This document shows positions 601-19,395 of a stretch of 20,000 nucleotides of DNA, piece by piece (position 1 is the stretch's first letter; the number at the start of each line of letters is the position of its first letter). The stretch is taken from IMG/VR virus record IMGVR_UViG_3300025333_000001; one strand, written 5' to 3'. Position numbers and translations under genes: made by a program. This DNA is from an uncultured virus (IMG/VR IMGVR_UViG_3300025333_000001). Lineage: Duplodnaviria > Heunggongvirae > Uroviricota > Caudoviricetes > Thumleimavirales > Hafunaviridae. The notes under the pieces are model-generated. The model worked only from the letters and a program-made list of their open reading frames with translations, had not been told where the DNA came from and ran no database searches.

Positions 601-673
601 AGATCAGGGCCGGATTCGAACCGGCGTCTGTACGGATCTGCAATCCGTTGCGTAACCACTCGGCCACCTGATC
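601..673 (-). tRNA. tRNA-Cys (GCA)
   Basis: Full cloverleaf: GATCAGG/CCTGATC acceptor, ACGGA-TTGCAGA-TCCGT anticodon arm, GCCGG-TTCGAAT-CCGGC T-arm. U73 discriminator; CCA not encoded. Confidence 0.95.
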
Positions 674-791
674 GAACGGAATGAAGCGGGAGTGCGGTCA
701 ATGGGATGTTTCATCACGGTCAACAACGAGTTTTCATGGTTGACTTACTCGGTAGTGTAATCATAATGTCGTTCATATTGTTCTAACATCT

Positions 792-1274
792 GTGAGTGTC
801 GTTATTCTTACGGCCCCTTACCTCCGTTGGCTACAGCCCGCTCTAACGGGGGCACACCGACGCGGAGTTCCGGTTAGCACTCGCTCTGATGGTATCGGGT
901 AATAGTTGTTTTACGTCCCACGGAGGGGGTTGACCACCCCACTATCCGATCAAGGGTAATTCACTCGTGAGACGAATGGTTCCAGTGGGATTTGAACCCA
1001 CGTTGCATGTCAGAGTAGGTTGCTCCTACCCGTGCTACGGAAGCGTGTTGTCCGTGCTACACTATGGAACCGAAAACGGACGGGCGAACAACCCGTCCAC
1101 GTCCTACCGGAACGGCGGGACACAACCTATTTGCCAACGAGGGGTAAGCGGCCCTCACCCTACACCATGCGCCCATGAGGTTTAACTCTGCATGGTAGAA
1201 ACGAAGGGAGTGTAGGGAGAGAACCGACAAGTACTCGGAGGAGGTCGCCACCCTGTCTCGGGTCACGTCCTCAC
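792..1274 (-). ncRNA. Candidate large structured ncRNA enclosing a tRNA-like domain
   Basis: No credible ORF. Nested long-range helices 1153-1133/831-812 and 1125-1115/921-911 (plus 1131-1127/905-901), helix 1217-1210/1165-1158, several local hairpins, and a TATA-like element at 1296-1303. Confidence 0.55.
977..1071 (-). tRNA. Atypical tRNA-like element (95 nt) with intact acceptor, D and T arms but no canonical anticodon arm
   Basis: GGTTCCA/TGGAACC+A acceptor, GTGT/ACAC D-stem, GTGGG-TTCAAAT-CCCAC T-arm. The middle holds a GGGTAGG-AGCAA-CCTACTC hairpin instead of a 5-bp/7-nt anticodon arm. Confidence 0.75.
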
Positions 1275-1292
1275 TAAACTATTTCTCGCCTA

Positions 1293-1310
1293 ATGACTTA
1301 AGTCTTGCGA
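1293..1310 (-). promoter_or_regulatory. Putative BRE/TATA promoter for the RNA cluster
   Basis: Minus strand GCAAGA CTTAAGTC, ending ~22 nt upstream of the predicted RNA 5' end at 1274. Confidence 0.5.
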
Positions 1311-1404
1311 GTATATTCTTTCGGGCAAATCAACACATTTGGTAAGCAAAAAAATCCTATTTGCACAGTAGGGACCGCCTACCCGGTCATTATCGCCGTT
1401 TAGC

Positions 1405-1422
1405 GCCAAAACGATTAAGTCG
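1405..1422 (+). promoter_or_regulatory. Putative BRE/TATA promoter for the 1452 gene
   Basis: CAAAACG ATTAAGTCG about 30 nt upstream of the ATG; 13/14 identical to 2561-2574. Confidence 0.5.
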
Positions 1423-1451
1423 GTAGGGAATGATCTTATAGATGAACAATC

Positions 1452-2009
1452 ATGAGTGAGTCCCCATCATCTGCGCACTCCAACGGCGAGCGAACGGTCA
1501 AATGCCCAGTCGAAGGGTGTGATCACACTGGCCCGTCACGCGGGCTACACCTTCATGTCCTGCGCAAATCGGGCGGTGGTCACGGTGAACAAAACGATGT
1601 TCCCCCGGACCTTAACCTTGTCAACGCCGAAACCGTAGGCCGACAGGAGATAACGGTTGACTACCCCGAAACGCGAAAAACCGAGAACGTCGCCCGGCAG
1701 TGTCCGTACTGTGGACAGGTCTACCGCGGCAAGCAAGGACTGGCCATTCACTTCGGGCAGGTCGTCGGACGAAAGAACCATCCGTCTGACCGCGCTGAGT
1801 TCCCCGCAGCGTCCGACTGTGCTATTGTTCACGTTGATGATGACCAGAACATCATCGAAGTACTCGAAGCCGATCAGAGCAACGTCATGCCGTCTACACG
1901 GCTTCGGCGACAAGACTCCGACCGAGTGGAGCAACTGTTGTCGGAAATCGAGGACGCCGCCGGCGGAGAAACAGCAGATAAAGTTCGGAACCTAATGCTC
2001 GCCGATTAA
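1452..2009 (+). CDS. Protein with two C2H2-like zinc fingers
   Basis: CPVEGC..GLHLH..H and CPYC..GLAIH..H; acidic 185 aa. Confidence 0.75.
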   Translation: MSESPSSAHSNGERTVKCPVEGCDHTGPSRGLHLHVLRKSGGGHGEQNDVPPDLNLVNAETVGRQEITVDYPETRKTENVARQCPYCGQVYRGKQGLAIHFGQVVGRKNHPSDRAEFPAASDCAIVHVDDDQNIIEVLEADQSNVMPSTRLRRQDSDRVEQLLSEIEDAAGGETADKVRNLMLAD

Positions 2010-2554
2010 GCTGCGAGGTCTTCCGACCACTCTTCGCGGAAGAACTCGGCTGTGTATTTTGGGTTTTTTCCTTGCCGCGTTTCGTCTCGGATTTCATCTA
2101 ACGCTTTGATGATCTCGTAGAACCCCTGCTTGGTGAGGTGTTTTCGCTGTTCCATACTCGGGATGATAAACGAGAGCATGATCTGGGCGTTCTCGAATTG
2201 TGTCACGAGGTATGGCATCAGCGGTTCGAGAAACCGTGTAACCGAATTAGGCTGCTTGATGACAAACTCGAACGACTCGGTTCCGTTACGGGTGACCTCA
2301 TTCAGCGAGAACTGGACGCCATGCTCACTGCAATACTCGTCTATCTTGCCGAAAATGTAGGAATCCTCGGCAGGTCTGGTGATTCGAACCATCGGTTCAA
2401 ACCGATACCCGATTGTTGCGTCTCCTTTTACGATGTGACCGCTGATTGTTCCGGCAGCATCGAAGAATCCAGCAATGTGGGCTGTGTCTGGTTTGTCCAT
2501 ATCTACTTGTTCTACCCGCTGGGTTGATAACGGTTGTGATTGGTTTTCAGTCAT
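2006..2554 (-). CDS. Single-motif LAGLIDADG homing-endonuclease-fold protein, probably catalytically inactive
   Basis: HIAGFFDAAGTI motif, FLEPLMPYLV and the C-terminal KHLTKQGF..I signature. The catalytic acidic position is Ala. Confidence 0.85.
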   Translation of the reverse strand: MTENQSQPLSTQRVEQVDMDKPDTAHIAGFFDAAGTISGHIVKGDATIGYRFEPMVRITRPAEDSYIFGKIDEYCSEHGVQFSLNEVTRNGTESFEFVIKQPNSVTRFLEPLMPYLVTQFENAQIMLSFIIPSMEQRKHLTKQGFYEIIKALDEIRDETRQGKNPKYTAEFFREEWSEDLAA

Positions 2555-2679
2555 GATTGCAAACGTTTAAGTCGCTCCGCGATAATTGTTTAGTGAGAGC
2601 AAGCCAGCCACGGCGAGCTACTGCTATTCCATTCGTTGGGGTGTTGAGGGTTGGTACTCCGAGTATCAACTCTCCGCGC

Positions 2680-2735
2680 TTCAACTGGGTTTCAACTGGG
2701 TTTCAACTGTGGGGTTCAACCACTGGGGTTCAACC
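2680..2735. repeat. Degenerate tandem repeat TTCAACTGGGT (5 units, 11-14 nt)
   Basis: Units start at 2680, 2691, 2702, 2715 and 2729. Confidence 0.85.
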
Positions 2736-2979
2736 TCACAGTAAGTACAGTACTACAGCACTAACCGTTAGAGCAACCTCATCGAGTTACAACACCGAGT
2801 TGTTACACCACGGTTTAGACTGCGGTGTTAAACAATGGGTTTATACCTCTGTAGCAACTAAGCTGTGTTGTAGCGGTGCGTTGCTGTGTGGTGCTGTGTG
2901 GTGCTGTACTGTTGTGTTATTGTAGTAGCCCCGTCCTCGAATTACAACACGAGTTGTTACAACACTGGGTTGATACCTT

Positions 2980-3076
2980 CAGTAGTAACCCTACAGTAGT
3001 AACCCTACAGTAGTAACCCTACAGTAGTAACCCTACAGTAGTAACCCTACAGTAGTAACCCTACAGTAGTAACCCT
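2980..3076. repeat. Perfect 14-bp tandem repeat CAGTAGTAACCCTA, ~6.9 copies
   Basis: Units at 2980, 2994, 3008, 3022, 3036, 3050 and 3064 (last 13/14). Confidence 0.97.
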
Positions 3077-3146
3077 TAAGGTAATCCCCCTTCTGTATGT
3101 TTCCCCCTTTGTAGCAAACCGTGGGTGGCTGCCCTCGTGTTTCCCG

Positions 3147-3632
3147 ATGGAACGAGTCAACGAAAAGCAGCCGCCAGAGGTTGTCACGTCTGATACTGAC
3201 AACGCCACGGCTATCCACCCGAAAGACGCACCGAGTCACAAACAAGCGCAGTACAAGCGGTTCCGAGCGTACAACACTGGCCTGTGGAACGGCCCCCGAC
3301 GTGAAAACAAAGAAGCGATGTACCGACAGGACAACCTGCATCGGTACGATGCCATTGCTTCACAGGTCGGCATTACTGACTACCAGAAAAGCCGAGGTCG
3401 GGAAATTCTCGATGGTATCGACATCCGAGATACTGGCAAGCCACTCGACCACCTCGCGTTTGCCGTCTGTGTGATCGTGGCCAACGCCGACTGTCAAGGC
3501 AAGCGGTACTGGCCACATCCAGATAAAACTGACAACGACGAGGAGTTCGCTGCCATGGGTCACGATCTCGGCATGGATTCAACTGACCAAATAAGTGTTA
3601 TCATGTCAGTGAAAAACCGCACGGAGTTATAG
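3147..3632 (+). CDS. Hypothetical protein, possible cyclin/TFIIB-like helical fold
   Basis: The DAIASQVGITDYQKSRGREILDGID...LAFAVCVIVAN pattern resembles a cyclin-box repeat (recalled, not searched). Coupled to the next gene. Confidence 0.55.
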   Translation: MERVNEKQPPEVVTSDTDNATAIHPKDAPSHKQAQYKRFRAYNTGLWNGPRRENKEAMYRQDNLHRYDAIASQVGITDYQKSRGREILDGIDIRDTGKPLDHLAFAVCVIVANADCQGKRYWPHPDKTDNDEEFAAMGHDLGMDSTDQISVIMSVKNRTEL

Positions 3633-3633
3633 C

Positions 3634-4125
3634 ATGGCAGTATTTACCATTCTCGTTGACCGACGAGAACAGAAGCCATGGCTGTTCGAGAACTACCCGG
3701 TCGATACCAAAGAAGTAACGCTCGAAACCGGCGACTACACCATTGCGGAACTCTGTGAGTACAACGACGAATACGACACCTGTGTTCCCTCACTGGCCGT
3801 CGAACGGAAGTCCGGCCCCGATCTTCTACAGTCGATTACTCACGAACACGCTCGATTCCGCCGCGAGATTGTTCGTGCAGAGGATTGGGACGAACCGCTG
3901 CAAATCTACGTCGAAGAGCCATGGGGGACGTTCATGAACAACCGCGGGTTCATGGACTACCGCGATGTCAGCCCGGCACAAGTCAATGGCATTGTCACGA
4001 CCATGGGAAGGAAATACAACGCCGACTTCAACTTTTACTCGGATCGTCAACGAGCCGAGCAAGCGGCGTTCGATAAGCTGATGACGTGGTATCGTGCAGA
4101 GCAGTACTCGCCAGCCTCACCGTGA
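3634..4125 (+). CDS. ERCC4/XPF-domain structure-specific nuclease
   Basis: VDRREQ, LETGDY and VERKS..DL..SI motifs. Confidence 0.9.
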   Translation: MAVFTILVDRREQKPWLFENYPVDTKEVTLETGDYTIAELCEYNDEYDTCVPSLAVERKSGPDLLQSITHEHARFRREIVRAEDWDEPLQIYVEEPWGTFMNNRGFMDYRDVSPAQVNGIVTTMGRKYNADFNFYSDRQRAEQAAFDKLMTWYRAEQYSPASP

Positions 4126-4229
4126 CCGGGCTAGCAGGGCGGCTGCTGTCGTCTTTGCACTGGATATGACCAATGACACTCGGTTGGACCAAACGCGCTG
4201 AGAACGGCTGTCAGCGGCTCGTGTTTCAT

Positions 4230-4658
4230 TCACGATTGATACTCGCCATACAACTCCGACATGTGTTCGGCTAAGGAATCAGAATCTGCCGGATCGATTG
4301 TTTGACCGGTTGCACTGTCGTTGTGGCGCACCAGATCGAGACACTGCGGGCAGACCTCGTTGCGTCCGACCGTTAGCTCGTTGCCACAGACCTCGTGGTG
4401 GATGCACTGTTTCGTCTCGCCCTGTTCGGCGGCCTCCTCGAATTGCGACTCGTCGTATTCATACGCCTTGTCCATCCAATACGAGATTTGACTCGGGGAC
4501 GCCCCGAGAACGTGGGCAATTTCATACTGGTATTCATGCCGTTTGTCCAACTTCAACATCAGCTTGGGATCTTCCCACGGCTCATTCTTTTTGGCGAAGA
4601 ATGGGTTGGGACTGGGGCCGAGTTCGGCTTCGAGATCGCGTTCTGATTTGGTTGCCAT
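4230..4658 (-). CDS. Hypothetical protein with HTH-like segment and Zn-binding motif
   Basis: QYEIAHVLGASPSQISYWM; CIHHEVC..CPQC; acidic. Confidence 0.7.
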   Translation of the reverse strand: MATKSERDLEAELGPSPNPFFAKKNEPWEDPKLMLKLDKRHEYQYEIAHVLGASPSQISYWMDKAYEYDESQFEEAAEQGETKQCIHHEVCGNELTVGRNEVCPQCLDLVRHNDSATGQTIDPADSDSLAEHMSELYGEYQS

Positions 4659-4661
4659 GGT

Positions 4662-4976
4662 TTACTGGTCAAGATCGCCATGTTCGATGAGCGAGTCAAG
4701 CGCATCTGCGAACTCTTGGATCTGCTCGCGAGGCAAATCGTCTTCCGGATCTACTTCCCATTGCTCCGTTGTGGTCCATTGATTCCGGCCTTTCCGCCGC
4801 CCGGTTTTCTTTTGGATGCGAACGAGGTACGTTCCATAGACTGAGACGCGCCACCCGGCGACACCGTGTTTTCGGAACAGATCACCATCTTCGCCGCTGT
4901 ACGGGAAGAAACTGCGGGCTTGGAGTTCATCCATCACACACCCGTCATCGAAGTCAGCGTCACTGAATCCAGTCAT
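4662..4976 (-). CDS. Hypothetical protein (104 aa, MTGFSDADF...)
   Basis: Start reassigned to the ATG at 4976, which overlaps (ATGA) the stop of the upstream small ORF. Confidence 0.7.
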   Translation of the reverse strand: MTGFSDADFDDGCVMDELQARSFFPYSGEDGDLFRKHGVAGWRVSVYGTYLVRIQKKTGRRKGRNQWTTTEQWEVDPEDDLPREQIQEFADALDSLIEHGDLDQ

Positions 4977-5077
4977 TCGTCGCCATCCTCGCGGTTTTGC
5001 CGTTTGTACCGTCGCGCTCGCTCTTCCTCGGTTCGCCGTCTCGTTCCGCCGTACCAACTGATTTGTTCGTATTTCAT
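4973..5077 (-). CDS. Small 34-aa Arg-rich protein MKYEQISWYGGTRRRTEEERARRYKRQNREDGDE
   Basis: Below the ORF-track cutoff. The ATG sits directly behind a mini-tRNA/hairpin leader like the other genes, and it has an ATGA overlap with the next gene. Confidence 0.6.
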   Translation of the reverse strand: MKYEQISWYGGTRRRTEEERARRYKRQNREDGDE

Positions 5078-5150
5078 AGCTTCAGTCCCACACGATGTGG
5101 GAAAGCTGCCGAGGGGGCGTGACCCCCGTGGAGTCTTACTCTTCGGCAGT
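5078..5150 (-). ncRNA. Module 1: mini-tRNA (5150-5105) plus leader hairpin
   Basis: ACTGCCG AA GAGT-AAG-ACTC CA CGGGG GTCACGC CCCCT CGGCAGC, then TCCCACA-TCG-TGTGGGA, then ATG. Confidence 0.65.
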
Positions 5151-5224
5151 TACCGCACTGTCAACACGCTCGGCGACACGGCAGTCAGCCCCGGTCGTTG
5201 TACATTCCAACCACATCACATTCA

Positions 5225-5836
5225 ATGACACGAAAACTCCATCAGCAAGATGTCTGCGAGGTCACGGATAACGACCTGCAGACCGAGATCACTCGTCACC
5301 TCACTGGTGATGTCCTCGCGCTTGCAGTTGAGGACAGTCGCCTACAGTCTCTCGTCCCGATCGCCGGGCAAACCACGCTGTTCGGTGGCCACCTCGACTT
5401 CGGAGAAACCTCGGACCTGTACGCTGCACCGTTGTATGACCCGAACAATGAACAAGCGGCGTACTTCCCGCGGAACAAGAACGAACGCTTCCACTACGGC
5501 ACAAACTCGTACGATACCATCGTGACGCTGTTCCCGAAATGCGGGTACTTCCAACGCCCACCGCCGTTCATGGACATGACTCGAATCGTCCGTCCCGGTG
5601 GAACGCTCGTTGCGGTGACTGGCTTACAGCCAGAATCACCGGATGACCATGACGCGAAATGGTGGGTGCCTGCCAGCGATGACGTTGACTTGGATACCAT
5701 TCGCATCCTTCGGTCGAGTGGGTTCAAAACCCCGATTCTCGTGAACGTCTTCACCGTCACGACAAGTACGGAACGGCATCCTGAAGCAGCAGTCGTCACG
5801 GGGCCTGCAGACCGCCGAGAGGAGGTTCAAGCATGA
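5225..5836 (+). CDS. Class I SAM-dependent methyltransferase-like protein
   Basis: YGTNSYDTIV and MTRIVRPGGTLVAV motifs; the Gly-rich motif I is not obvious. ATG at 5225. Confidence 0.6.
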   Translation: MTRKLHQQDVCEVTDNDLQTEITRHLTGDVLALAVEDSRLQSLVPIAGQTTLFGGHLDFGETSDLYAAPLYDPNNEQAAYFPRNKNERFHYGTNSYDTIVTLFPKCGYFQRPPPFMDMTRIVRPGGTLVAVTGLQPESPDDHDAKWWVPASDDVDLDTIRILRSSGFKTPILVNVFTVTTSTERHPEAAVVTGPADRREEVQA

Positions 5837-9090: not shown

Positions 9091-9576
9091 TTATCCGTTG
9101 ACGACTGCCTCGGCGAACAGACGACCCGACTCAAAGTCGTCTGGCTTAGCGATTACGACTGGGTAGCTGTATCCCCAGTTGTAGTCAGTGAGCCGCTTTG
9201 CAATCGAGTGCATCACACCACTCACTGCGTAATGGTAGTCCGTCGTGTCGTGTCCCGTGGGAGATAGGTACTCCTTATACCGCGCATCATCAGTAGCTAA
9301 CACGATCACGTCGTCTGTTTCCTCTACAAGCCGGTAGTGACCTTGCTCGATACCATACATGTGCTCACTCCACGTCTCCTCAGCGGACCGCTGGAACGTT
9401 TCGAGAGCTTCGCGCACTTTATTGATATCTTGGATCGCCCCGCCGTCGGTCCCGTGTTCGATGTCGTCGTTGGTGATGTGCTGGGTTCGATCATCGATCT
9501 CACCGCCGTCGGTTCGGATCTCTGTTGTTTCGCTGACGCACTCTTCAAGATCGTCAAAGTGGACTCGTGGGTTCAT
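9091..9576 (-). CDS. Hypothetical protein (161 aa, MNPRVHFDD...), paralog of 17878..18195
   Basis: Acidic; ATG 1 nt after the upstream stop; shared H..A..LTDY.W...PVV..K motif. Confidence 0.75.
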   Translation of the reverse strand: MNPRVHFDDLEECVSETTEIRTDGGEIDDRTQHITNDDIEHGTDGGAIQDINKVREALETFQRSAEETWSEHMYGIEQGHYRLVEETDDVIVLATDDARYKEYLSPTGHDTTDYHYAVSGVMHSIAKRLTDYNWGYSYPVVIAKPDDFESGRLFAEAVVNG

Positions 9577-10908: not shown

Positions 10909-12006
10909 TTACTCGTCGTCCAGAATGATGACGCTTCGAGCCATCGGCTCCTCCTCGTGCCGCTCGATGTCGAAGGCTACGTTGACCCCCTGTTCGATGC
11001 TGTCGATCTCGATCTCCGTGGGATAGAAGAACACGTCGTCAGCAACATCTTCGGACTCGATGAAGCCGTAGCCACCAACGTCGTTGAAGAAGGCGACCTC
11101 ACCCCCGTAGTCTCGACCGTGGAGTGGGTCTTTCCCTTCGGCGACCTCCTCGCTTTCCTGCTCGCGTTCTTTGACTGCTTCGACTTCGGCTTCAAGTTCG
11201 GTTCGAAGATCGTCAATAACGTTGCGTGTCTCGCCTGCAATCGGAGCGCGGTTGGCAGCCTGTTTGATGTCATGCCATCGGCCGAAGAACAGGTGTAGCT
11301 CTTCGGCAATATCCGATGGAACCGAATGAACCGCTCCAATCGATTCGAGAGCTTCGGCAATCGTCGGCTGGGTATCCCGCGTGTGATCGTTGACCATCTC
11401 TCGGTACTTGTGGCAGAAGTCCATCAGCACGTCGTTGTCTAGTTCCAGCACGCTTTCGAACTTTTCCTGATCTTCGAAGACAACCACGTTGGAAAAGGCG
11501 ATGAAGTCGATCCACATCGCCAACTCGTTGACCCCACAGTGACAGAACGGGCAGAACTCCATCTGACTGGTGAACGCGTCTCGAACGTTGAGCGAAGACC
11601 GAATGTCGTGGTTGTTCTTACCATCCGAGTGGCCGTGGTACAGCCCACAGACCTTACACTCGTACCCCGAAGTTTCGCTGTGTTCGACCATGCTACTCGC
11701 TTCTTCGAGAACGCCAGCCAAATCGGGGTTGACATCCTTGATCCGGCTGATCTCGTTTTCGATCTCGTCTTTGCTGATCCCCGATGGGACGCTGTGACTA
11801 CCGAGCTTCCACTGGCTTACATAATCGGGTTCTTCCGGGGGAGTGTAGGACTCGCCCTGTTCGGCGGCGTCCCCGGTTTCCGACTCCTCTTCGTCCCCAG
11901 CGAGCCGACCGAGGAAATTTCGCACCGGGTCTTCGAATTTGCGTGCGGTTGATTCGTCGTTGGTTTCTGCGTCGTTGCTACCGTTGTTGTTGTTGCTTCC
12001 GAACAT
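10909..12006 (-). CDS. Cys/His-rich protein fused to a C-terminal cold-shock (OB) domain
   Basis: GEVAFFNDVGGYGFI..DDVFF..GVNVAFDIE; CKVCGLYHGH and CPFCHC. Confidence 0.8.
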   Translation of the reverse strand: MFGSNNNNGSNDAETNDESTARKFEDPVRNFLGRLAGDEEESETGDAAEQGESYTPPEEPDYVSQWKLGSHSVPSGISKDEIENEISRIKDVNPDLAGVLEEASSMVEHSETSGYECKVCGLYHGHSDGKNNHDIRSSLNVRDAFTSQMEFCPFCHCGVNELAMWIDFIAFSNVVVFEDQEKFESVLELDNDVLMDFCHKYREMVNDHTRDTQPTIAEALESIGAVHSVPSDIAEELHLFFGRWHDIKQAANRAPIAGETRNVIDDLRTELEAEVEAVKEREQESEEVAEGKDPLHGRDYGGEVAFFNDVGGYGFIESEDVADDVFFYPTEIEIDSIEQGVNVAFDIERHEEEPMARSVIILDDE

Positions 12007-12099
12007 AGGTTGTATCCCGCTTGTTTTATGTCATTGCGCTCGGCGGGCTTGCGCTCAAGTCCCGGTGGGGGAGTCGAACCCCCTTACGCCGTCACCGGG
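12007..12099 (-). ncRNA. Module 5: mini-tRNA (12099-12061) plus pseudoknot, family B
   Basis: CCCGGT GACGGCGTAA GGGGG TTCGACT CCCCC ACCGGG, then GCGC AAG CCCGC CGA GCGC N15 GCGGG ATACAACCT ATG. Confidence 0.8.
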
Positions 12100-12175: not shown

Positions 12176-12550
12176 TCACATCAATCGGCGCTCAGCGCCG
12201 TACACGATTTTCGAGGATGCTTCGTACCCACAGTTCCGGCACTCGAACCAGCGCTGAATCTTCGCACCGTCAGCCGTTTTCCCCCCGATTGCCACGTCGC
12301 TGTTCGGACACTCGGGACAACTCAGTTCGGGCGCTGGCCGTTTCCGTAGCTCATCACGAAACGATTTCGCGTCCTTCGTCTCGTACCCCCGCGACCACAC
12401 TGGGTAGCCGTCTACGAGGATTACGCCACGCCACTTGTAGCGGTACGAATTCGGTGCTTGGTGTAAGACCGCCAGAGCGCCGGTCTCGGTATTCCGGTAT
12501 GCGAGTGTGGGCGTGCGGCTTTCACGTCGCCAGTTTGTGATTCTGGGCAT
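12176..12550 (-). CDS. Zinc-ribbon protein of a type common on haloarchaeal mobile elements
   Basis: CPEC..CRNCG. The MPRITNWRRES start is familiar from haloarchaeal hypotheticals (recalled). Confidence 0.75.
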   Translation of the reverse strand: MPRITNWRRESRTPTLAYRNTETGALAVLHQAPNSYRYKWRGVILVDGYPVWSRGYETKDAKSFRDELRKRPAPELSCPECPNSDVAIGGKTADGAKIQRWFECRNCGYEASSKIVYGAERRLM

Positions 12551-12647
12551 AGGTTGTATCCCGCTTGTTTTGTGTCATTGCGCTCGGCGGGCTTGCGCTC
12601 AATGCCTAATGGGGGCCGTGAACCCCCCGAGGTCTTAGCTTTTAGGC
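12551..12647 (-). ncRNA. Module 6: mini-tRNA (12647-12604) plus pseudoknot, family B
   Basis: GCCTAAA AGCTAAGACCTCG GGGGG TTCACGG CCCCC ATTAGGC A. Leader 12548-12602 is 54/55 identical to 12004-12058. Confidence 0.75.
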
Positions 12648-13874: not shown

Positions 13875-16658
13875 TCACTCGGAGTCTTTGTTCCAGCCCC
13901 GGTCGTCTACGGTTCCAACGGTCTTGCGAAGCGACAGGGCGTCCATGTCCATGGGGTTGAGGCCCACATCGTACAGGCCGAGGATCATGTTTTCAACCCG
14001 GCTGTCGGCATCTTTAAGGAGCGAGTAGACACCGCTGTCGTCGTCCCATTCGGGCGTTTTCGCCTTGAGCCGGTATTCCGACTCACTGCCAGACAAGTAG
14101 TCGAACGAGATCCGGGCTGGCCCACGGTAGTAGTTGCCATTGGTGCCACCCCATGTGGATTTCACCCCGTGGATGTTGTTGATGATGCACTTGTTGAGAG
14201 CGAATGCCATCCGTTCGAGGGTTCGATCATCGGCCACCCCGACAACCACGTCTTCGATCTCCGGCTTGTTGTCACTCCCAGTCGACCAGTACTGGCCGTT
14301 GACCTCGTCTTCGGCGTAGTAGTAGCGAAGCTGGGCCATCTCCTCAGTGTCGGCCATCATGGTTTTGACCGTGTTGTTGTGAGCGTAGACAACCACCGCG
14401 AAGTCAGCGTCGCTTAGTTCGGCTGCCGTCATGGCACCGTCACTCGTTGCCATGACCGCGTTCTCCGACATCTCGGTGAACTCCTCGTAGGATACCACCC
14501 GGTCGTATTCCGACAACACATCGAACTCTGCGGCAGAACAGGAAGCGATTGCCCCGTATTCCTGCATCGGGTAGTGATCCGAGATGTTGGCATCGCCGTT
14601 TCGTGGGAACAGGATTACGTAGTTGTGACCCCACATACGGATACCATCATCGAGCTTGTCGGTGAGGGTGCCGATTGTCGCCCGTTTGTCAATCGACTGG
14701 TTGTTGTTGTTGGTTCGGAACTTGAGTGTCACCTCATCGATGTTGTCCGCTTTGCCCCCGCCGTTCGATGTGGATTTCTTGCGCTTGTGACGACTGTGAA
14801 TCGCGTCGGACACTTCGAAGTCATGGTCGTCACTCTGCTGCATTGGCACGTCGTTGAGCCGTTGGAACCCGAAGATGCCCTCGAACTGATCGTAGCCAAT
14901 CGACGCACCACTGGTCGAGATAACAGCCGGATCATCGAAGGTATCATGGACCACCTTGTACTTGTCCTCGTTGATCGTCTTCCCCATAAACACCTGTTCC
15001 GGCGGGGTTGACGACAGGATCTCGCCCACCATCCGCCCGGTTCGGTTGGACTTTTGGCTGGGTGCATGGCATCGCTTACCGGCATAACTTACGTCTTCGA
15101 ACAGTCGGAACACCTGTTCTCGGAGTTCATTATCCCACCCGGATAACTCGGCATGGTTATCAACGAACTTGTCGAACTCGTTGCGGCGTTTCGTCGCGTT
15201 GTAACTATGGTAGTCAACCATGCGGTAGAACAGTTCCCACGACTGGGTGTCGTTCCGAAAGACATCTGTCGGGCGATCTGCATCCCGCATTTTGTCAGCG
15301 ATATCACTGACCTTTTCCATCTCGGCGTCTTCCACCATCTCGCTCAACATGGCGAAGAACCGCTCAGTCTTGCCGTCACGCTGTAGTCGATCCCGGTCGG
15401 TGGTTGGCTCCGGCATCGGTGCGTCAAGCTCATGCAGTTTGCCCTCGCGCTTTTCGACCTCGTTCCGGTACTCACCGCGGTGTGGCCCCATCACGATCTT
15501 ACCCTGTTCATCGTGAATGTGAATGAGAACCTTCCAGAACGATTTGACCTTCTTGTTCGTGTTGCGATCAATCTCCATGCCGACCAGCCACGTATCAGGA
15601 TCTTTGTAGCTGTTAGGCAGATCAGGCCCTGCAATCAGGGTGAACTCGCCGGGTCGGTCGATCACAACTGATGGGGTTTCGCCAAACGCCTCGGCGAATG
15701 GCTGGCCCCCGAACTCCTCTTTCTCACGGTTTCGACCAGCCTCATGCTCTTGATAGAGGACCGGAACGGCCAGTTTCGAGGCGTATTTCCGTGTCCACGA
15801 CAGGAACTTGTCCATGTTGACCGACTCCTGAATGGGAACATCGAACCGCGTTCCCCGAAAGTCGTCATCAATGTCGGCCGACGGCATGGGGTCGAACCCA
15901 GCGAGGTAGGTGTAGGCTTTGATGCCTTCGTAATCGTAGTCTTTGGCATCGGGTCGTCGGGTCCGTGACGTGACTTCCATCCCGCCCTGCTTGCCGGCGA
16001 TGGCCCCAAACGTCATAGCTCCGATCCCCCACTTCCCCCCGGTGTCGCCATCGATAGATGACCCCGAGTCGAACGTGGAGTTGTAAGCGTCGTTGAACTC
16101 TTTGACCGTCATACCAATGCCGTTGTCTTCGATCACAATCTTCCGCTCATCGCGGTAGAGATCGACCTCGATGGTTGGATCGTAGCCGAGATCACGAGCC
16201 GCGTCAATAATCTCGTGAAGGCTGCGGGGAATCTTCATTTCGCGGAACTTGTCACCGTCAAGGGACCACTCGGGTAGCAGACTTTGGTTGGCATCCTCTT
16301 GATCGAGCGTTTCCCCCGTTTTGGTGTTGACCCAGATCGTGGGGTTCAACCACTCCACCCCATAATCGGGGTGCTCTCTCAACAAAATGCGAGCCGCCCG
16401 AATACAGGCTGTCTGTGCGTTTTGAAGGAACTCCCGAATGAACGATGAATCGTCCGAGTAGATCGACTCGGCCAACACCTCGTTGGCCTTTTCGATGTTC
16501 ATCGTTCGCTCTTGCGACCCGGTGCTTCCCAGACCCCGTGCAAGGGGGTTGTTTTCGTCTACCGCGTTGATGTTTTTCGTTTCGAGATCACTTTCGACGT
16601 TCTGCACGCTTGATTCGTAACTATCCTTCGTTTCTGGCAGGTGTTCTGAATCGCTCAT
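13875..16658 (-). CDS. Large GHKL (Hsp90-like) ATPase-domain protein, 927 aa, possibly rIIA-like
   Basis: IYSD..FIREFLQNA, IEDNGIGMT, GKWGIG and GTRF motifs. Start reassigned to ATG 16658 behind the repeat leader. Confidence 0.85.
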   Translation of the reverse strand: MSDSEHLPETKDSYESSVQNVESDLETKNINAVDENNPLARGLGSTGSQERTMNIEKANEVLAESIYSDDSSFIREFLQNAQTACIRAARILLREHPDYGVEWLNPTIWVNTKTGETLDQEDANQSLLPEWSLDGDKFREMKIPRSLHEIIDAARDLGYDPTIEVDLYRDERKIVIEDNGIGMTVKEFNDAYNSTFDSGSSIDGDTGGKWGIGAMTFGAIAGKQGGMEVTSRTRRPDAKDYDYEGIKAYTYLAGFDPMPSADIDDDFRGTRFDVPIQESVNMDKFLSWTRKYASKLAVPVLYQEHEAGRNREKEEFGGQPFAEAFGETPSVVIDRPGEFTLIAGPDLPNSYKDPDTWLVGMEIDRNTNKKVKSFWKVLIHIHDEQGKIVMGPHRGEYRNEVEKREGKLHELDAPMPEPTTDRDRLQRDGKTERFFAMLSEMVEDAEMEKVSDIADKMRDADRPTDVFRNDTQSWELFYRMVDYHSYNATKRRNEFDKFVDNHAELSGWDNELREQVFRLFEDVSYAGKRCHAPSQKSNRTGRMVGEILSSTPPEQVFMGKTINEDKYKVVHDTFDDPAVISTSGASIGYDQFEGIFGFQRLNDVPMQQSDDHDFEVSDAIHSRHKRKKSTSNGGGKADNIDEVTLKFRTNNNNQSIDKRATIGTLTDKLDDGIRMWGHNYVILFPRNGDANISDHYPMQEYGAIASCSAAEFDVLSEYDRVVSYEEFTEMSENAVMATSDGAMTAAELSDADFAVVVYAHNNTVKTMMADTEEMAQLRYYYAEDEVNGQYWSTGSDNKPEIEDVVVGVADDRTLERMAFALNKCIINNIHGVKSTWGGTNGNYYRGPARISFDYLSGSESEYRLKAKTPEWDDDSGVYSLLKDADSRVENMILGLYDVGLNPMDMDALSLRKTVGTVDDRGWNKDSE

Positions 16659-16745
16659 AGGTTTTATCCCGGTCTTATATCGCGCCGTTCCGGGGTTATG
16701 GCGCAGGGGCCGCCGGGGAGTCGAACCCCGGTACTCCAACGGCCT
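16659..16745 (-). ncRNA. Module 7: mini-tRNA (16745-16707) plus pseudoknot, family A
   Basis: AGGCCGT TGGAGTAC CGGGG TTCGACT CCCCG GCGGCCC, then TGCGCC ATAAC CCCGG AAC GGCGCG ATATAAGA CCGGG ATAAAACCT ATG. Confidence 0.8.
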
Positions 16746-16787
16746 ATCGTCTGTCGTCTGTACTGACCGCAACCGGGTTAGAATGTA

Positions 16788-16976: not shown

Positions 16977-17764
16977 GGTTCACCCCAGACAAACCCTTCG
17001 GCGTCCATCATCGGCTTAATGCTGTATTCGTATTGGTGCATCGGCGTTGTTTCCGAGCCGAGGACCCGAAGCCAGTGGTCGCCGCCTTCTAACTCGGCGT
17101 TGTGGTCGTAGCGAAGCCGCTTCAGGAACGAGTTGTGAAGTTTCACTGACGACCGATGCCACTCCTTGCGGCTTCGGGTGTTTTTCTGAAGCACGTCGTT
17201 CGACTCTTTCGATGGGCGAACTTCGTAGTCGAAAAACGATTTGTAGAACGTGAACTTTAGCATCTCGTCCCAGAGCTTCAGTCTCTCGTCGCGGTTGATG
17301 ACGCCGAACTTCTCGGCAAGCATCTGCCGCAGGGCGATTTTTCGCTCGAAATGCTGCGGGTGGTGGTAGGTGGTTCGCTCTGCTATATCGAGTTCGTGTT
17401 GAACTACGGTCTGCTGAAGCCACTCGGGAACAGCTTTGAGTTCGTACTCGATGCTGTTGATGTAGCGCAAAACGTCGGCGTTGCGGTTGCCACTGATGCC
17501 GGACGACACCCAGTCGAGCAAGAGGCTCCGAATCCCCTCGAACGCCTCATCATCGCTAACGGCGACGTTAACGAGCGTACCCCTCTTGATGCCGTTCTCC
17601 CCATCGAGACTCAGTACACCGCGAATTGCGTCTCTCTCCACCGGCTCAACGCCGCTTTCTGGCTCGCCTTCCAGCAACATTTGCGCCATGTCTCTCGCTC
17701 CGATGTGTTTCAGCACTTCGCCGACCATTTCCTCTGCTCGGATTCGTCGTGTATTTTGGTTCAT
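16973..17764 (-). CDS. Hypothetical protein (263 aa, MNQNTRR...)
   Basis: Start reassigned to the ATG behind the repeat leader. Confidence 0.75.
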   Translation of the reverse strand: MNQNTRRIRAEEMVGEVLKHIGARDMAQMLLEGEPESGVEPVERDAIRGVLSLDGENGIKRGTLVNVAVSDDEAFEGIRSLLLDWVSSGISGNRNADVLRYINSIEYELKAVPEWLQQTVVQHELDIAERTTYHHPQHFERKIALRQMLAEKFGVINRDERLKLWDEMLKFTFYKSFFDYEVRPSKESNDVLQKNTRSRKEWHRSSVKLHNSFLKRLRYDHNAELEGGDHWLRVLGSETTPMHQYEYSIKPMMDAEGFVWGEP

Positions 17765-17860
17765 AGGTTGTATCCCGGTCTTATATCGCGCCGTTCCGGG
17801 GTTGTGGCGCAAGAGTCGTCGGGGGGATTGCACCCCGAACCAGCGTGGTTACTGCGACTT
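17765..17860 (-). ncRNA. Module 8: mini-tRNA (17860-17813) plus pseudoknot, family A
   Basis: AAGTCGC AGT AACCA-CGC-TGGTT CGGGG TGCAATCC CCCCG ACGACTC, then the pseudoknot at 17812-17774. Confidence 0.75.
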
Positions 17861-17877
17861 GTCGTTGATGTTCACTG

Positions 17878-18195: not shown

Positions 18196-18452
18196 TGTCG
18201 GTTGTTTTGCTCCATCCATTCGCGGGCCGGTTCGGCGGCGTTTTCGGGTTTGAGACCGACTTCGACGTAGTCGATTACCTGATTGTCTTGATAGTAGTTT
18301 TCTGGGAGTGTCACTACGTTGTAACTACTCCTCCCTTCCCGCTCAATGGCAAGCACAAGGCCATCGCGTCGCCGCTGAAACGTCTGTCGCTGGTGGTCGA
18401 ACTCTGGTTCAATCTCGGTCCATCCGGCTGGGGGTTTGACTTGCTGGTTCAT
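18192..18452 (-). CDS. Hypothetical protein (86 aa, MNQQVKPPAGW...), copy 1
   Basis: Close paralog of 19654..19914; ATG behind the repeat leader. Confidence 0.8.
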   Translation of the reverse strand: MNQQVKPPAGWTEIEPEFDHQRQTFQRRRDGLVLAIEREGRSSYNVVTLPENYYQDNQVIDYVEVGLKPENAAEPAREWMEQNNRQ

Positions 18453-18548
18453 AGGCTGTATCCCGGTCTTATATTGCGCCGTTCCGGGGTTGTGGCGCAA
18501 AAGCCGTCGGGGAGATTGCACCCCGAACCAGCGTGATTACTGCGACTT
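18453..18548 (-). ncRNA. Module 9: mini-tRNA (18548-18501) plus pseudoknot, family A
   Basis: AAGTCGC AGT AATCA-CGC-TGGTT CGGGG TGCAATCT CCCCG ACGGCTT. Differences from module 8 preserve pairing. Confidence 0.75.
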
Positions 18549-18596
18549 GTGGTTGATGTTCACTGTCGGTTGTTTTGCTCCATCCGTCTGACTCAC

Positions 18597-19259
18597 CTAT
18601 ATCTCTCGGTTGATAGCTTCGCTGTGGTATGCCTCTCGGAACGCGGGCAACACATCCTCTTTATGGATATGATATCCGATATCGGTAGGTGTGGTGTCGT
18701 AAGGCGCGTAACCAGCCAATTGTTGCAGTTGTGGGGCGATATTGTTGATGTATTGCGCCGAATCGGTTGGGATTTCGTAATGTTCGTCTGGAGCGAACAC
18801 ATCGGTAGGAGCATAGTCCCGACCAATTTCCGCAGCGCGTTCGGCAGCCTTTTCGCCGATCTCTTCAATGGTGAGACAATCTGTGTCTGCAAAGCCGCCC
18901 AACTCCTCCGTCATACGCAGGCGGAAGCGCAATTCTGGGTCATACGACTTGTGGACGAGCAGATTCACGTTAAGCGGTTTTTCACAGTCCTCGCACACTG
19001 GCGCTGGATAATCCCATTCAGCATCACCGAAGATTGCGCCATTATCATTATCAGCTAATTCCTCATCAGTAGCACAGTTACCACAGATGATATCGCAGTC
19101 ATTGACCACGATCCCCGCAAGACCGTATGGGGCATATCCTGATGGTGTTTGCGATTTGAGGTTAGCATGGTCCTCGTACAGTGCTTCGGTCGAACTTACG
19201 ATGATTTCGTTGTTCAGGTCTTCGGCTCGCTGTCGTCGGGTTTGGGTGTCGTCACTCAT
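18597..19259 (-). CDS. Hypothetical acidic protein with CxxC..CxxC motif (220 aa)
   Basis: CGNC..CEDC; ATG behind the repeat leader. Confidence 0.75.
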   Translation of the reverse strand: MSDDTQTRRQRAEDLNNEIIVSSTEALYEDHANLKSQTPSGYAPYGLAGIVVNDCDIICGNCATDEELADNDNGAIFGDAEWDYPAPVCEDCEKPLNVNLLVHKSYDPELRFRLRMTEELGGFADTDCLTIEEIGEKAAERAAEIGRDYAPTDVFAPDEHYEIPTDSAQYINNIAPQLQQLAGYAPYDTTPTDIGYHIHKEDVLPAFREAYHSEAINREI

Positions 19260-19356
19260 GATTTGATTTCCCGGTCTTATATTGCGCCGTTCCGGGGTTG
19301 TGGCGCAAGAGTCGTCGGGGGGATTGCACCCCGAACCAGCGTGGTTACTGCGACTT
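19260..19356 (-). ncRNA. Module 10: mini-tRNA (19356-19309) plus pseudoknot, family A
   Basis: Nearly identical to module 8 over 19270-19358, with a different spacer to the ATG (AAATCAAATC). Confidence 0.75.
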
Positions 19357-19364
19357 GTGGTTGA

Positions 19365-19395
19365 AGGTTTAACCCGGTGGGGTTAAATCTTTGTG
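19365..19395 (-). promoter_or_regulatory. Putative BRE/TATA promoter inside an 11-bp inverted repeat
   Basis: Minus strand ACAAAGA TTTAAC, ~27 nt upstream of module 10; palindrome AGGTTTAACCC-GGTG-GGGTTAAATCT. Confidence 0.5.

Follow-up and report, generated by a model that had tools for sequence, protein, structure and literature searches.

A conserved folded leader heads a predicted tRNA transcription unit in a Hafunaviridae-like virus

The window, the whole stretch of 20,000 nucleotides analysed here, comes from an uncultured virus (IMG/VR IMGVR_UViG_3300025333_000001). Close to one of its ends lies a 904-nt stretch without credible ORFs, which holds two tRNA matches on the same strand (Rfam, ARAGORN). 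The locus contains the following features.

1296..1301, minus strand: TATA-like box TTAAGT of the leader and tRNA unit, with a predicted start about 1275/1274
1241..1272, minus strand: H1, the 5'-terminal hairpin of the leader, which folds in every lineage despite differing sequence
1158..1217, minus strand: H2, a variable stem-loop CCCUACAC...GUGUAGGG present in several folds
1139..1156, minus strand: H3, GAGGG-loop-CCCUC, a local hairpin in four lineages
1114..1130, minus strand: the most conserved block of the leader, with AGGUUGUGUCCCGCC at 1128-1114 invariant in four lineages
1101..1121, minus strand: H4, hairpin GUCC-C-GCCG-loop-CGGU-A-GGAC, kept in four lineages with differing loop sizes
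1078..1098, minus strand: H5, a G+C-rich hairpin 6 nt upstream of the tRNA-like element, with UUUU (1076-1073) after it
977..1071, minus strand: aberrant tRNA-like element of 95 nt (Rfam tRNA, ARAGORN)
914..974, minus strand: structured tRNA trailer, a local helix CGUCUCACG/CGUGGGACG around two small hairpins
792..898, minus strand: part of the spacer between tRNA slot and tRNA-Cys, previously taken for the 3' domain of a large RNA; missing in the near-identical strain G001
601..673, minus strand: tRNA-Cys(GCA), a normal cloverleaf (Rfam 54.3 bits; ARAGORN), identical in the relatives L036 and L038
62..547, minus strand: Dam-type DNA adenine methyltransferase gene inside the tRNA array (Pfam PF05869, E 9.9e-21)

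The HSP90-like protein of the window shows 44% identity to the Hafunaviridae isolates HSTV-2, HRTV-7 and HCTV-6, which bears out the assignment to an archaeal virus made in a preliminary description of the locus. The virus is Hafunaviridae-like and known from salt-lake metagenomes. Among deposited phage genomes there is no sequence homologue of window positions 700-1400 at E 1e-5, and in HF2-like loci that share a neighbouring 185-aa gene the non-coding region is without similarity.

Relatives show what kind of locus this is. In L036, L037 and L038 the same locus carries tRNA-His and tRNA-Trp, then the same trailer and spacer, followed by tRNA-Cys and tRNA-Gln. A complete relative of 70 kb (G002) has all four of its tRNAs in this single cluster. 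The tRNAs are thus arranged as in a viral polycistronic tRNA gene cluster: they lie on one strand, have no ORFs between them, and occupy the same slots in relatives.

The contents of these slots change between close relatives. G001 is 99.4% identical to the window over 1-541 and 100% identical over 899-5325, and the intervening 558-898 is absent. L014 matches the window down to about 1278, with unrelated sequence following, and L015 and L032 depart at 1418. In DNA contigs, at least two other tRNA 3' ends are joined to the same trailer at 979. The tRNA-Gln genes of G001 come after the Dam methyltransferase gene; in the L036 type, tRNA-Gln follows directly after tRNA-Cys, with no Dam gene between. 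Judged from these alignments, the locus is a modular mosaic, whose cassettes appear to be swapped or lost exactly at module borders. The borders would be the predicted start site, the tRNA slot, and the spacer plus tRNA-Cys. On this evidence, the tRNA clusters of haloarchaeal viruses are sets of interchangeable cassettes that have one promoter in common.

The promoter itself resembles one that has been studied in the halovirus HF2. As far as the available text of the HF2 study goes, class I intergenic repeats serve as promoters and are composed of an alpha, a beta (TATA) and a gamma (start-site) motif; the beta motif CTTTAAGT(C) acts as a promoter by reporter assay and primer extension, and its AT motif begins at -26 from the start site (PMC8707807). 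The window carries CTTAAGTC, one base short of that beta motif, with G/A at the predicted +1. The TTAAGTC before the leader is likewise similar to CTTTAAGTC, as the beta motif is also given, and AGTTAAGTCAT is kept in an alignment of the window, the L036 type and Mincapvirus. TTAAGT at 1301-1296 lies about 26 nt upstream of 1275/1274, and we infer from the sequence that transcription starts there. In strand, promoter position and approximate 5' end, this prediction agrees with the preliminary description.

There is also a hint of transcription from metatranscriptome contigs, which may contain DNA: both RNA runs have contigs over 1059-1244, and one of them also over 777-977. Positions 1245-1395 have no RNA contigs, though DNA runs cover them (the RNA contigs come from one study). 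RNA depth is 62.8-fold on 777-977 and 9.35 on the leader. Since the DNA run X1 shows the same ratio of about 7 to 1, the 62.8-fold depth is no sign of a stable RNA. A gap in the RNA contigs at 978-1058 was considered as a signal and discarded as uninterpretable, because only contigs are available and variants branch there.

Downstream of the promoter, the preliminary description saw a single RNA of about 480 nt. The unit that survives is smaller: a conserved folded leader of about 200 nt (1274-1072, minus strand), which heads the viral tRNA cluster and consists of the local hairpins H1-H5. We found the leader in four virus lineages. These include all six Mincapvirus isolates in culture, whose annotation lacks it. 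The H1-H5 architecture is common to the window, L036 and five Mincapvirus isolates. The leader is also more stable than expected by chance, with fold z of -3.35 in the window and -3.49 in L036, and 0 of 200 shuffles as stable in each. Two of the local elements described before, the hairpin at 1098-1078 and one at about 948-921, are present in the minimum-energy fold, and the helix CCCUACAC/GUGUAGGG (1217-1210 with 1165-1158) is present in folds as well. With the six cultured isolates and at least three uncultured lineages, carriers of the leader include the tractable viruses HSTV-2, HRTV-7 and HCTV-6, which makes it testable at the bench. HRTV-2 is a further cultured carrier, and in HSTV-2 the leader occupies about 46,680-46,885 on the minus strand.

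Individual hairpins keep their pairing while their sequence changes. At the top of the H1 stem, the window pairs A with U, L036 pairs C with G and HSTV-2 pairs G with C (read by eye). At 1210-1165 in H2, the window has C-G, contigs of runs X24 and X3 have U-G, and one contig of X23 has U-A, a compensatory series. Between the window and the L036 type, H5 keeps seven of seven pairs, three of them via changes on both sides, and a hairpin at the same position is also found in Mincapvirus and L020. MAFFT alignments of H1 and H5 are out of structural register, and no formal pair count was made on them. The segment between H1 and H3 is 75 nt long in both the window and HSTV-2, and 30 nt long in L036.

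A covariance model (R1) built solely from Mincapvirus sequences recovers the leader elsewhere. It matches L036 and L038 at 38 bits (E 2.5e-7), L020 at 28.1 bits (E 4.8e-5) and the window at 1073-1139 with 26.6 bits (E 1.1e-4), in each case upstream of tRNA genes. The combination that we propose as diagnostic of the Hafunaviridae leader, H3-H4-H5 and the invariant AGGUUGUGUCCCGCC upstream of same-strand tRNAs, is present in the window. In the R1-fitted alignment 99.1% of cells pair (97.6% for H4), and six pairs change on both sides compared to 1.2 in shuffles (0 of 500 reach six) and at most one in slid controls; this covariation is drawn from few independent lineages (four), and the alignment is fitted to the structure. 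The same alignment misplaces H3 of the window (true position 1156-1139) and misses H5 of L036. We set aside a pair count on an alignment with weak model matches (E up to 1), because fitting inflates it. A loose leader pattern occurs at 58 loci, four of them on contigs of this virus group. From the conserved architecture in four lineages, the leader appears to be the unit under selection.

Could the leader region be something else? An ORF of 69 codons at 1266-1057 was rejected as coding, given that the indels of relatives are not multiples of three and that a natural variant has lost 2 nt at 1161. A separate short RNA could terminate at the UUUU that follows H5, in which case we would be looking at an independent small RNA gene rather than a leader. 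H5 has a weak, terminator-like match to SorX that stays below threshold (22.8 vs 46.6).

The tRNA-like domain that the preliminary description had seen embedded in its RNA is real. It scores 42.4 bits against the Rfam tRNA model (RF00005, gathering score 29) with a 34-nt local insert, and is also called by ARAGORN. All pairs form in the acceptor (7/7), D (4/4) and T (5/5) stems. It has no canonical anticodon arm, in which a 5-bp stem would carry a 7-nt loop containing U33: the 'Ala(agc)' call of ARAGORN has three of five pairs in the anticodon stem, and at minimum energy the centre folds into a 7-bp hairpin with the 5-nt loop AGCAA. One DNA variant has two changes, both of which disrupt this central hairpin. 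The element occupies the slot that holds tRNA-Trp(cca) in relatives. It is probably defective and non-decoding.

Other origins for the element do not hold up. We rejected an intron-containing archaeal tRNA, because the anticodon region 1045-1002 has no bulge-helix-bulge (3-nt bulge, 4 bp, 3-nt bulge). A scan of 1300-540 gives 24 loose motifs of this type vs 20.4 in shuffles, which is chance level, and of 1045 in-silico excisions 359 were called by ARAGORN, but the calls agree on no single anticodon (agca 166, Ala 80, Cys 61). Descent from the tRNA-Trp of relatives was rejected as well, as the generic T-loop alone matches (13 nt). The element contains a 9-nt internal direct repeat, GTAGCACGG, and removing sequence between its copies never gives back a cloverleaf (judged by eye). 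In IMG/VR, a 28-mer and a 25-mer of the element matched only G001.

What follows the tRNA slot falls into two parts. The trailer helix keeps nine of nine pairs in relatives, one of them by a compensatory change from C-G to U-A. Compared with shuffles, the spacer shows no excess stability: 976-674 has a z of +0.27, and 60 of 100 shuffles fold as well. Its part at 792-898 is 99% identical in L036 and L038. This is no significant excess over the neighbouring Dam gene (96.7%), and hence nothing can be concluded from it about spacer function.

We propose that these parts form the head of a tRNA transcription unit (1301-558, minus strand) in a Hafunaviridae-like haloarchaeal tailed virus. Transcription driven by the HF2-type TATA box (TTAAGT, 1301-1296) would begin at about 1275/1274, and the 5' part of the RNA would be the leader of about 200 nt with its five local hairpins. 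Next would come the tRNA slot with the aberrant, probably non-decoding element, then the short structured trailer, an unstructured spacer of about 235 nt, and tRNA-Cys. Further downstream, and probably part of the same RNA, would be the Dam methylase gene and the tRNA-Gln genes. Cleavage by RNase P and tRNase Z at the ends of the tRNA and the tRNA-like element would set leader and spacers free. We assign a probability of about 70% to this reading as a whole, a modular cluster head made up of promoter, leader, aberrant tRNA slot, trailer, spacer and tRNA-Cys.

Comparable arrangements are known from viruses of the same family. Accounts of the HF1 group (Haloferacalesvirus, Hafunaviridae) describe, in their available portions, an aberrant 'tRNA-Pro', a partial tRNA-Arg with a 28-nt deletion and a tRNA-like attP (PMC7230728, PMC8707807). 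According to the same portions, tRNA genes lie in the early/middle region, some of them weak or non-canonical and beside normal tRNAs, and tRNAs are swapped or deleted between close relatives. The element in the window differs from these: there is no sequence similarity, and compared with what those portions describe it is not a truncation, since it has intact acceptor, D and T arms and an aberrant centre of 34 nt. An attP role is unlikely, as the element is not next to an integrase.

The tRNA region of phage T4 is transcribed as one precursor that contains tRNAs and small stable RNAs, 'species 1 and 2', of unknown function. Our locus is similar to T4-type clusters in that one promoter, several tRNAs and structured non-tRNA segments come together, with release by tRNA-end processing (which for our locus would be the predicted route). 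It differs in its archaeal host, its TATA-type promoter and its unrelated sequences. GOLLD (RF01998) is also a large viral non-coding region adjoining tRNA genes, and the preliminary description drew this analogy. The analogy finds no support in Rfam, where GOLLD has no match; moreover, what is conserved at our locus amounts to some 200 nt of simple hairpins, and the embedded tRNA is replaceable.

Outside the tRNAs, no Rfam family reaches threshold, as the preliminary description had anticipated. When 500-1600 was searched at E up to 10, the non-tRNA families stayed far below their thresholds (Plastid-ycf2 26 vs 65.7, YrlA 16.6 vs 69). The Y RNA-like YrlA (RF02553) was rejected for a further reason: its match falls on the tRNA-Cys gene, and the long-range closing stem at our locus is not conserved.

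The leader has an invariant core. AGGUUGUGUCCCGCC, 15 nt long, is the reverse complement of a box, CGGGAYACAACC, that is found at start codons. The window contains six copies of the box vs 0.28 expected (0 of 200 shuffles reach six), of which five, all minus-strand, immediately precede an ATG and the sixth lies on the plus strand in the leader. HSTV-2 has the same arrangement, with six minus-strand copies 0-8 nt before annotated start codons and one plus-strand copy in the leader; these boxes precede the first genes after intergenic gaps (genes 58, 80, 83, 89, 90 and 102). The window also has its own repeated intergenic modules with a conserved box beside the start codon. The box is comparable to the gamma motif of HF2 class I repeats as presented in the available text, although it reads CGGGAYACAACC where the gamma core reads CGTCTNNTAGAG. 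That text does not mention an inverted copy inside a transcribed tRNA leader for class I repeats (PMC8707807).

One could argue that the leader acts in trans as a small RNA of the virus. Its AGGUUGUGUCCCGCC would base-pair with the box, (G)CGGGAYACAACC(U), just before the start codons of several viral transcription units, and tune their translation or processing. The RNA would be released by RNase P at the 5' end of the tRNA or tRNA-like element, or end at the UUUU, and the tRNA-like element would be a processing handle. No part of the leader is better conserved across the four lineages than this block, its first 6-7 nt form a single-stranded linker between H3 and H4 in the folds, and it is complementary to the boxes over 12-17 nt. 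In the window the match is exact except for a G-U at the box T, and four of the five sites also deviate elsewhere in the box. Three of the six HSTV-2 boxes are preceded by hairpins and have no AT-rich motif at the expected distance (by eye), so they may be transcribed. The remaining sites, however, have an AT-rich box about 26-28 nt before the ATG. This predicts leaderless mRNAs that would lack the box, and the box would then be an element of the DNA close to the promoter, comparable to the HF2 gamma motif in the available text (PMC8707807). In addition, the block is invariant and the boxes vary between C and T, hence the two do not co-vary between lineages. On balance, a small RNA of this kind seems unlikely to us. 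The same goes for its extension, in which the leader would represent an undescribed Hafunaviridae family of regulatory RNAs, matured by tRNA enzymes, with a core that pairs with the boxes and the tRNA-like element as cleavage handle; we regard this as doubtful.

If it were true, one small RNA would co-ordinate a set of early/middle genes in five to six viral transcription units. Either way, the antisense relation between leader core and start-codon box is a concrete lead on gene regulation in haloviruses, a subject of which little is known according to the authors of the HF2 promoter study, as far as its available text shows (PMC8707807).

Alternatively, everything could happen at the level of DNA. 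The inverted box in the leader would bind the same viral regulator as the promoter-proximal boxes, the hairpins would be relics of terminators or recombination, and the RNA would be no more than a precursor destined for degradation. The box does lie between a TATA-like motif and ATG at several genes, intergenic repeats are suggested to hold binding sites of viral regulators in the available text of the HF2 study (PMC8707807), and the cassette borders match promoter and tRNA edges. Yet H1, H2, H5 and the trailer helix all show compensatory changes, which point to selection on RNA pairing, not on DNA sequence, and the leaders of two lineages fold well below shuffles. We therefore consider an explanation at the DNA level alone to be quite improbable.

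Least probable by far is the reading that the locus encodes one ornate non-coding RNA of about 480 nt (1274-792), folded as a single molecule whose long-range helices close around the tRNA-like domain. A giant RNA of this kind, folded around a tRNA, would have added a remarkable new class of RNAs, but the reading fails. Its outer helix (1153-1133 with 831-812) is real in the sequence, with a duplex energy of -31.4 kcal/mol, and forms when 792-1274 is folded to minimum energy (-194.5 kcal/mol, z -3.03, none of 100 shuffles equally stable). In a long-range shuffle scan the outer pairing is the best long-range duplex of the region, at -34.5 kcal/mol. When the 483 nt were dinucleotide-shuffled, three of 150 shuffles matched it, as did one of 60 for the 904-nt non-coding stretch. 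The helix is unusual, not overwhelming.

The relatives decide against it. The preliminary description had itself named lack of conservation in homologues as grounds for abandoning the RNA, and neither long-range helix is conserved. In L036 and L038 the 3' strand of the outer helix is unchanged, yet eight of 17 pairs are broken without compensation; the duplex of the homologous strands reaches -20.6 kcal/mol in L036 vs -36.3 in the window, whereas shuffled windows average -28.6 for their best duplex in the long-range scan. The nested inner helix has four of 16 pairs broken and none compensated. It competes for the same 3' strand with the local trailer helix, and the compensatory change backs the local helix. 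The 3' strand of the outer helix lies in 558-898, which is missing from the near-identical strain G001 (100% over 899-5325), and with it 898-792, the 3' third of the claimed RNA. The 3' part is the unstructured spacer, and the embedded element is replaced by other tRNAs in relatives. H3 competes with the outer pairing too, as its loop carries CUUACC, part of the claimed helix. The 5' strand lies partly inside an insertion specific to the window, CGUUGGCAAAU. Judging by these comparisons, the helices that seemed to close the RNA are specific to this strain. One variant, A1145G, preserves its outer-helix pair as G-U, and the outer helix may form a strain-specific long-range contact.

The locus is a modular viral tRNA cluster, and its real conserved non-coding element is a hairpin-rich leader of about 200 nt that cultured Mincapvirus isolates also have; in the window a defective tRNA-like element comes after it. 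The window comes from a haloarchaeal tailed virus. It encodes a 965-aa HSP90-like protein with 44% identity to counterparts in HSTV-2, HRTV-7, HRTV-2, HRTV-11, HCTV-6 and HCTV-15, and a 185-aa zinc-finger-like protein (1452-2009, plus strand) with 46-48% identity to proteins of HF2-sized IMG/VR genomes. Further genes are a Dam methylase, an ERCC4 nuclease, a dCTP deaminase and a weak LAGLIDADG match. At least 22 metagenome runs from salt lakes or lakes contain DNA of the studied region, as do two metatranscriptome runs. There is no credible ORF in 548-1451, and the first two features below are the sole Rfam matches at gathering threshold in the whole window; a permissive Rfam scan of 500-1600 gave nothing credible beyond them.

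601-673, minus strand: tRNA-Cys(GCA), Rfam 54.3 bits
977-1071, minus strand: tRNA-like element of 95 nt, Rfam 42.4 bits
2006-2554, minus strand: 182-aa ORF with a sub-threshold LAGLIDADG endonuclease match (21.9 bits, cut-off 23.1)

By eye, a homologue of the 182-aa ORF lies directly upstream of the tRNA-cluster promoter in L036-type viruses, whereas the window has the 185-aa gene as an insertion between the two.

The preliminary description proposed one ornate RNA of about 480 nt, closed by long-range helices around the tRNA-like element. The sequence features it described are present, and when 792-1274 is folded to minimum energy (-194.5 kcal/mol, z -3.03, none of 100 shuffles as stable), the outer helix and the hairpins appear together with a tRNA-like cloverleaf frame. 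No other long-range duplex in the region is as stable as the outer pairing of 1153-1133 with 831-812 (-34.5 kcal/mol). Shuffling the 483 nt gives an equally good duplex in 3 of 150 cases, and shuffling all 904 nt of the non-coding stretch does so in 1 of 60, which makes the pairing unusual at roughly the 2% level, not more. Two other null models gave no information.

The nearest relative found, G001, matches the window over 1-541 (99.4%) and 899-5325 (100%) and is missing 558-898; at its junction ...AACAACTATTAC is joined directly to the 10 nt preceding the Dam start codon. Hence, an otherwise identical virus does without the 3' strand of the outer helix, the entire proposed 3' domain and tRNA-Cys. 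Scanning IMG/VR with that 3' strand returned three contigs (L036, L037 and L038), in which the strand is unchanged and the homologous 5' strand is not complementary to it. In these L036-type relatives 8 of 17 outer pairs are broken or missing, and the duplex energy is -20.6 kcal/mol versus -36.3 in the window (the mean best duplex of window shuffles in the long-range scan is -28.6). The 5' strand of the window lies partly within a window-specific insertion, CGUUGGCAAAU. The inner helix (1125-1115 with 921-911) has 4 of 16 pairs broken in relatives, none of them compensated. The G-to-A change left unbalanced in it does find a compensating partner in a local helix that competes with it and lies just 3' of the tRNA; there CGUCUCACG/CGUGGGACG becomes CGUUUCACG/CGUGGAACG with 9/9 pairs kept. 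Folding of the spacer (976-674) is at the level of its shuffles (z +0.27). Lack of helix conservation in homologs is an outcome that the preliminary description itself named as refuting. With neither helix conserved, the spacer unstructured and the 3' strand missing in G001, the observation is confirmed in part, and the interpretation as a single large RNA is not supported.

Viral tRNA clusters can also carry small RNAs, as in T4, to which the halovirus tRNA cluster can be likened. At the same locus, L036, L037 and L038 have tRNA-His and tRNA-Trp(cca), then trailer, spacer and tRNA-Cys (92-100% identical to the window), and then tRNA-Gln. Close relatives cease to resemble the window at module borders. 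L014 has 97% identity as far as about 1278, shortly upstream of where the start site is predicted, and L015 and L032 have 96-98% as far as 1419; beyond these points all three are unrelated. DNA contigs from two metagenome runs (X1 and X3) show at least two other tRNA 3' ends fused to the same trailer at position 979, and a contig from an RNA run continues from the leader through 13 nt of the tRNA-like element into unrelated sequence at 1059. All four tRNAs of a complete 70-kb relative, G002, lie within this cluster. In more distant, HF2-like relatives the homologous gene has different tRNAs next to it on the same strand (Arg, Asn, Tyr, Gly and others); in one such virus (L004, 402-474, minus strand) ARAGORN finds a tRNA with a four-letter anticodon, ttga, and therefore an 8-nt anticodon loop. 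G001 has two tRNA-Gln genes after its Dam gene. By its coordinates (tRNA-Gln at 9159-9231, window position 1 at 9209), the window starts (1-23) inside a minus-strand tRNA-Gln gene. The two Dam N-termini differ by a 21-nt in-frame indel (527-547; MAKNSSNEY... in the window, MAKKHKSKSNNSSDEY... in G001) that adjoins the 341-nt deletion. Partial and aberrant tRNAs, and tRNA differences among close relatives, are described for the HF1 group in the available parts of PMC7230728 and PMC8707807.

The leader (1274-1072, minus strand) folds into local hairpins H1-H5 (z -3.35, 0 of 200 shuffles), and the shorter leader of L036 has the same kind of fold (z -3.49, 0 of 200 shuffles). A pattern from its most conserved block also matched HSTV-2. 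All eight deposited records of the six cultured Mincapvirus isolates hold an unannotated non-coding stretch of about 445 nt between a divergent gene and their only tRNA-Gln; it is 96.5-100% identical among records, and its first 200 nt or so are homologous to the window leader. In the phage collection the conserved block occurs only in these records, besides one chance match (E = 6). Folds computed for each lineage agree in the order of elements, H1 through H5:

first, H1
second, conserved UCCGAG
third, the variable H2 segment (75, 30 and 75 nt)
fourth, GUGAGGGC with H3
fifth, a single-stranded linker
sixth, H4
seventh, the G+C-rich H5

Between the window and L036, H5 keeps 7/7 pairs with three double changes, and the H2 pair 1210-1165 occurs among natural variants as C-G, U-G and U-A. 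A covariance model built solely from Mincapvirus sequences picks up three more groups, in all of them a short way upstream of tRNA genes. L036 and L038 score 38 bits, the window scores 26.6 bits, and a fourth lineage, L020, in which tRNA-Thr, Pro, His and Gln follow, scores 28.1 bits. In the fitted alignment (9 significant matches, 6 distinct rows), which leans towards structure, 99.1% of cells pair; two-sided pair changes number 6, where shuffles give 1.2 (none of 500 reaches 6) and slid controls no more than 1. This alignment mis-places H3 of the window and misses H5 of L036.

The tRNA-like element has an intact acceptor stem (7/7), D arm (4/4, with a normal-looking D loop) and T arm (5/5), and the intervening 43 nt form no canonical anticodon arm. 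ARAGORN calls it Ala(agc) with 3 of 5 anticodon stem pairs. Its minimum-energy fold (-36.3 kcal/mol, z -3.84) has a 7-bp hairpin whose 5-nt loop reads AGCAA, along with an extended arm on the D side. The reading as an intron-bearing tRNA finds no support, as no in-silico excision restores a consistent tRNA; a bulge-helix-bulge motif was sought in the element and not found. Nor is there a specific likeness to the tRNA-Trp of relatives. In a natural DNA variant (99% identity over 975-1324), the central hairpin is broken by each of two changes (1029 and 1018), uncompensated. We read the element as non-decoding and defective; it may be a decaying gene or may be retained as a processing handle. Directly after H5 and UUUUC, L020 has a stretch (2520-2604, minus strand) whose opening resembles the 5' half of a tRNA (AGGCUGGUGUAGCUCAG...). 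No tRNA is called in it by ARAGORN or by Rfam at E up to 1, and this stretch may represent another defective tRNA-like element following a leader.

In every lineage AGTTAAGTCAT stands upstream of the leader and resembles the beta motif of HF2 class I intergenic repeats, CTTTAAGT(C) (PMC8707807). These repeats are demonstrated promoters according to the available parts of that paper, with the AT motif starting at -26 relative to the start site. The leader should therefore start at about 1275/1274, which agrees with the 5' end first proposed. Contigs from two metatranscriptome runs, both belonging to one study, span 1059-1244 (depth 9.35 and 7.29) and the divergent gene; one run also covers 777-977 (62.8) and 551-651 (3.1). 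Positions 1245-1395 are covered by DNA runs and by neither metatranscriptome run. As a DNA run shows a like ratio of depths, and neither ends nor strand can be read from the contigs, this coverage is a weak hint of real transcripts. In the spacer, GTAAGTCAA (723-731, minus strand) resembles the TATA-like TTAAGTCAT of the leader. Some 55 nt separate it from the tRNA-Cys downstream, which makes it a possible internal promoter; in relatives a 26-nt insertion at this very place changes the distance.

The invariant leader core AGGUUGUGUCCCGCC (1128-1114) is the reverse complement of a box, CGGGAYACAACC, found before viral start codons. With at most one mismatch the window has six copies versus 0.28 expected, a number reached in 0 of 200 shuffles. 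Five are minus-strand copies within repeated intergenic modules, all placed 1 nt ahead of an ATG, and the single plus-strand copy is inside the leader. In HSTV-2, six copies likewise lie on the minus strand, 0-8 nt ahead of the annotated start codons of genes that come first after an intergenic gap (genes 58, 80, 83, 89, 90 and 102), and a seventh, inverted, is in its leader. The available parts of PMC7230728, PMC8707807 and PMC8651126 mention neither the inverted box nor a conserved non-coding leader at tRNA genes. The modules form two families, both upstream of minus-strand genes:

16651-16771, 17757-17877, 18445-18565 and 19253-19373: four copies of 121 nt
11989-12083 and 12533-12627: two copies of 95 nt

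Both are laid out as an AT-rich box, then CGGGAYACAACC, then T-ATG, and because ORF calling runs through them, spurious shared N-termini (...RHNPGTARYKTGIQPMNQ) arise. The same DNA site could be used in both orientations. The AT-rich motif, where visible, lies about 26-28 nt before the ATG, which predicts leaderless mRNAs that do not contain the box and so favours a DNA element. Alternatively, the leader RNA could pair with box-containing RNAs. Three HSTV-2 boxes, by eye, have no AT-rich motif and follow hairpins.

Hairpins resembling T arms stand just upstream of the promoter modules, at 12060-12083 and 12604-12627 (plus strand); examples are GGGGGTTCGACTCCCCC (window, gene strand) and GGCGGGTTCGAGTCCCGCC (HSTV-2 locus L117). 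These hairpins could be terminators or relics of tRNAs. A 14-nt unit, CCTACAGTAGTAAC, forms a tandem array in the interval that separates the LAGLIDADG-like ORF from an ORF at 3147 (2962-3090; seven overlapping 45-nt copies among those listed). In HF2, promoters are embedded in regularly spaced 12-bp direct repeats at 14-15 bp spacing, as the available parts of PMC8707807 describe, and the array could be a regulatory or origin region.
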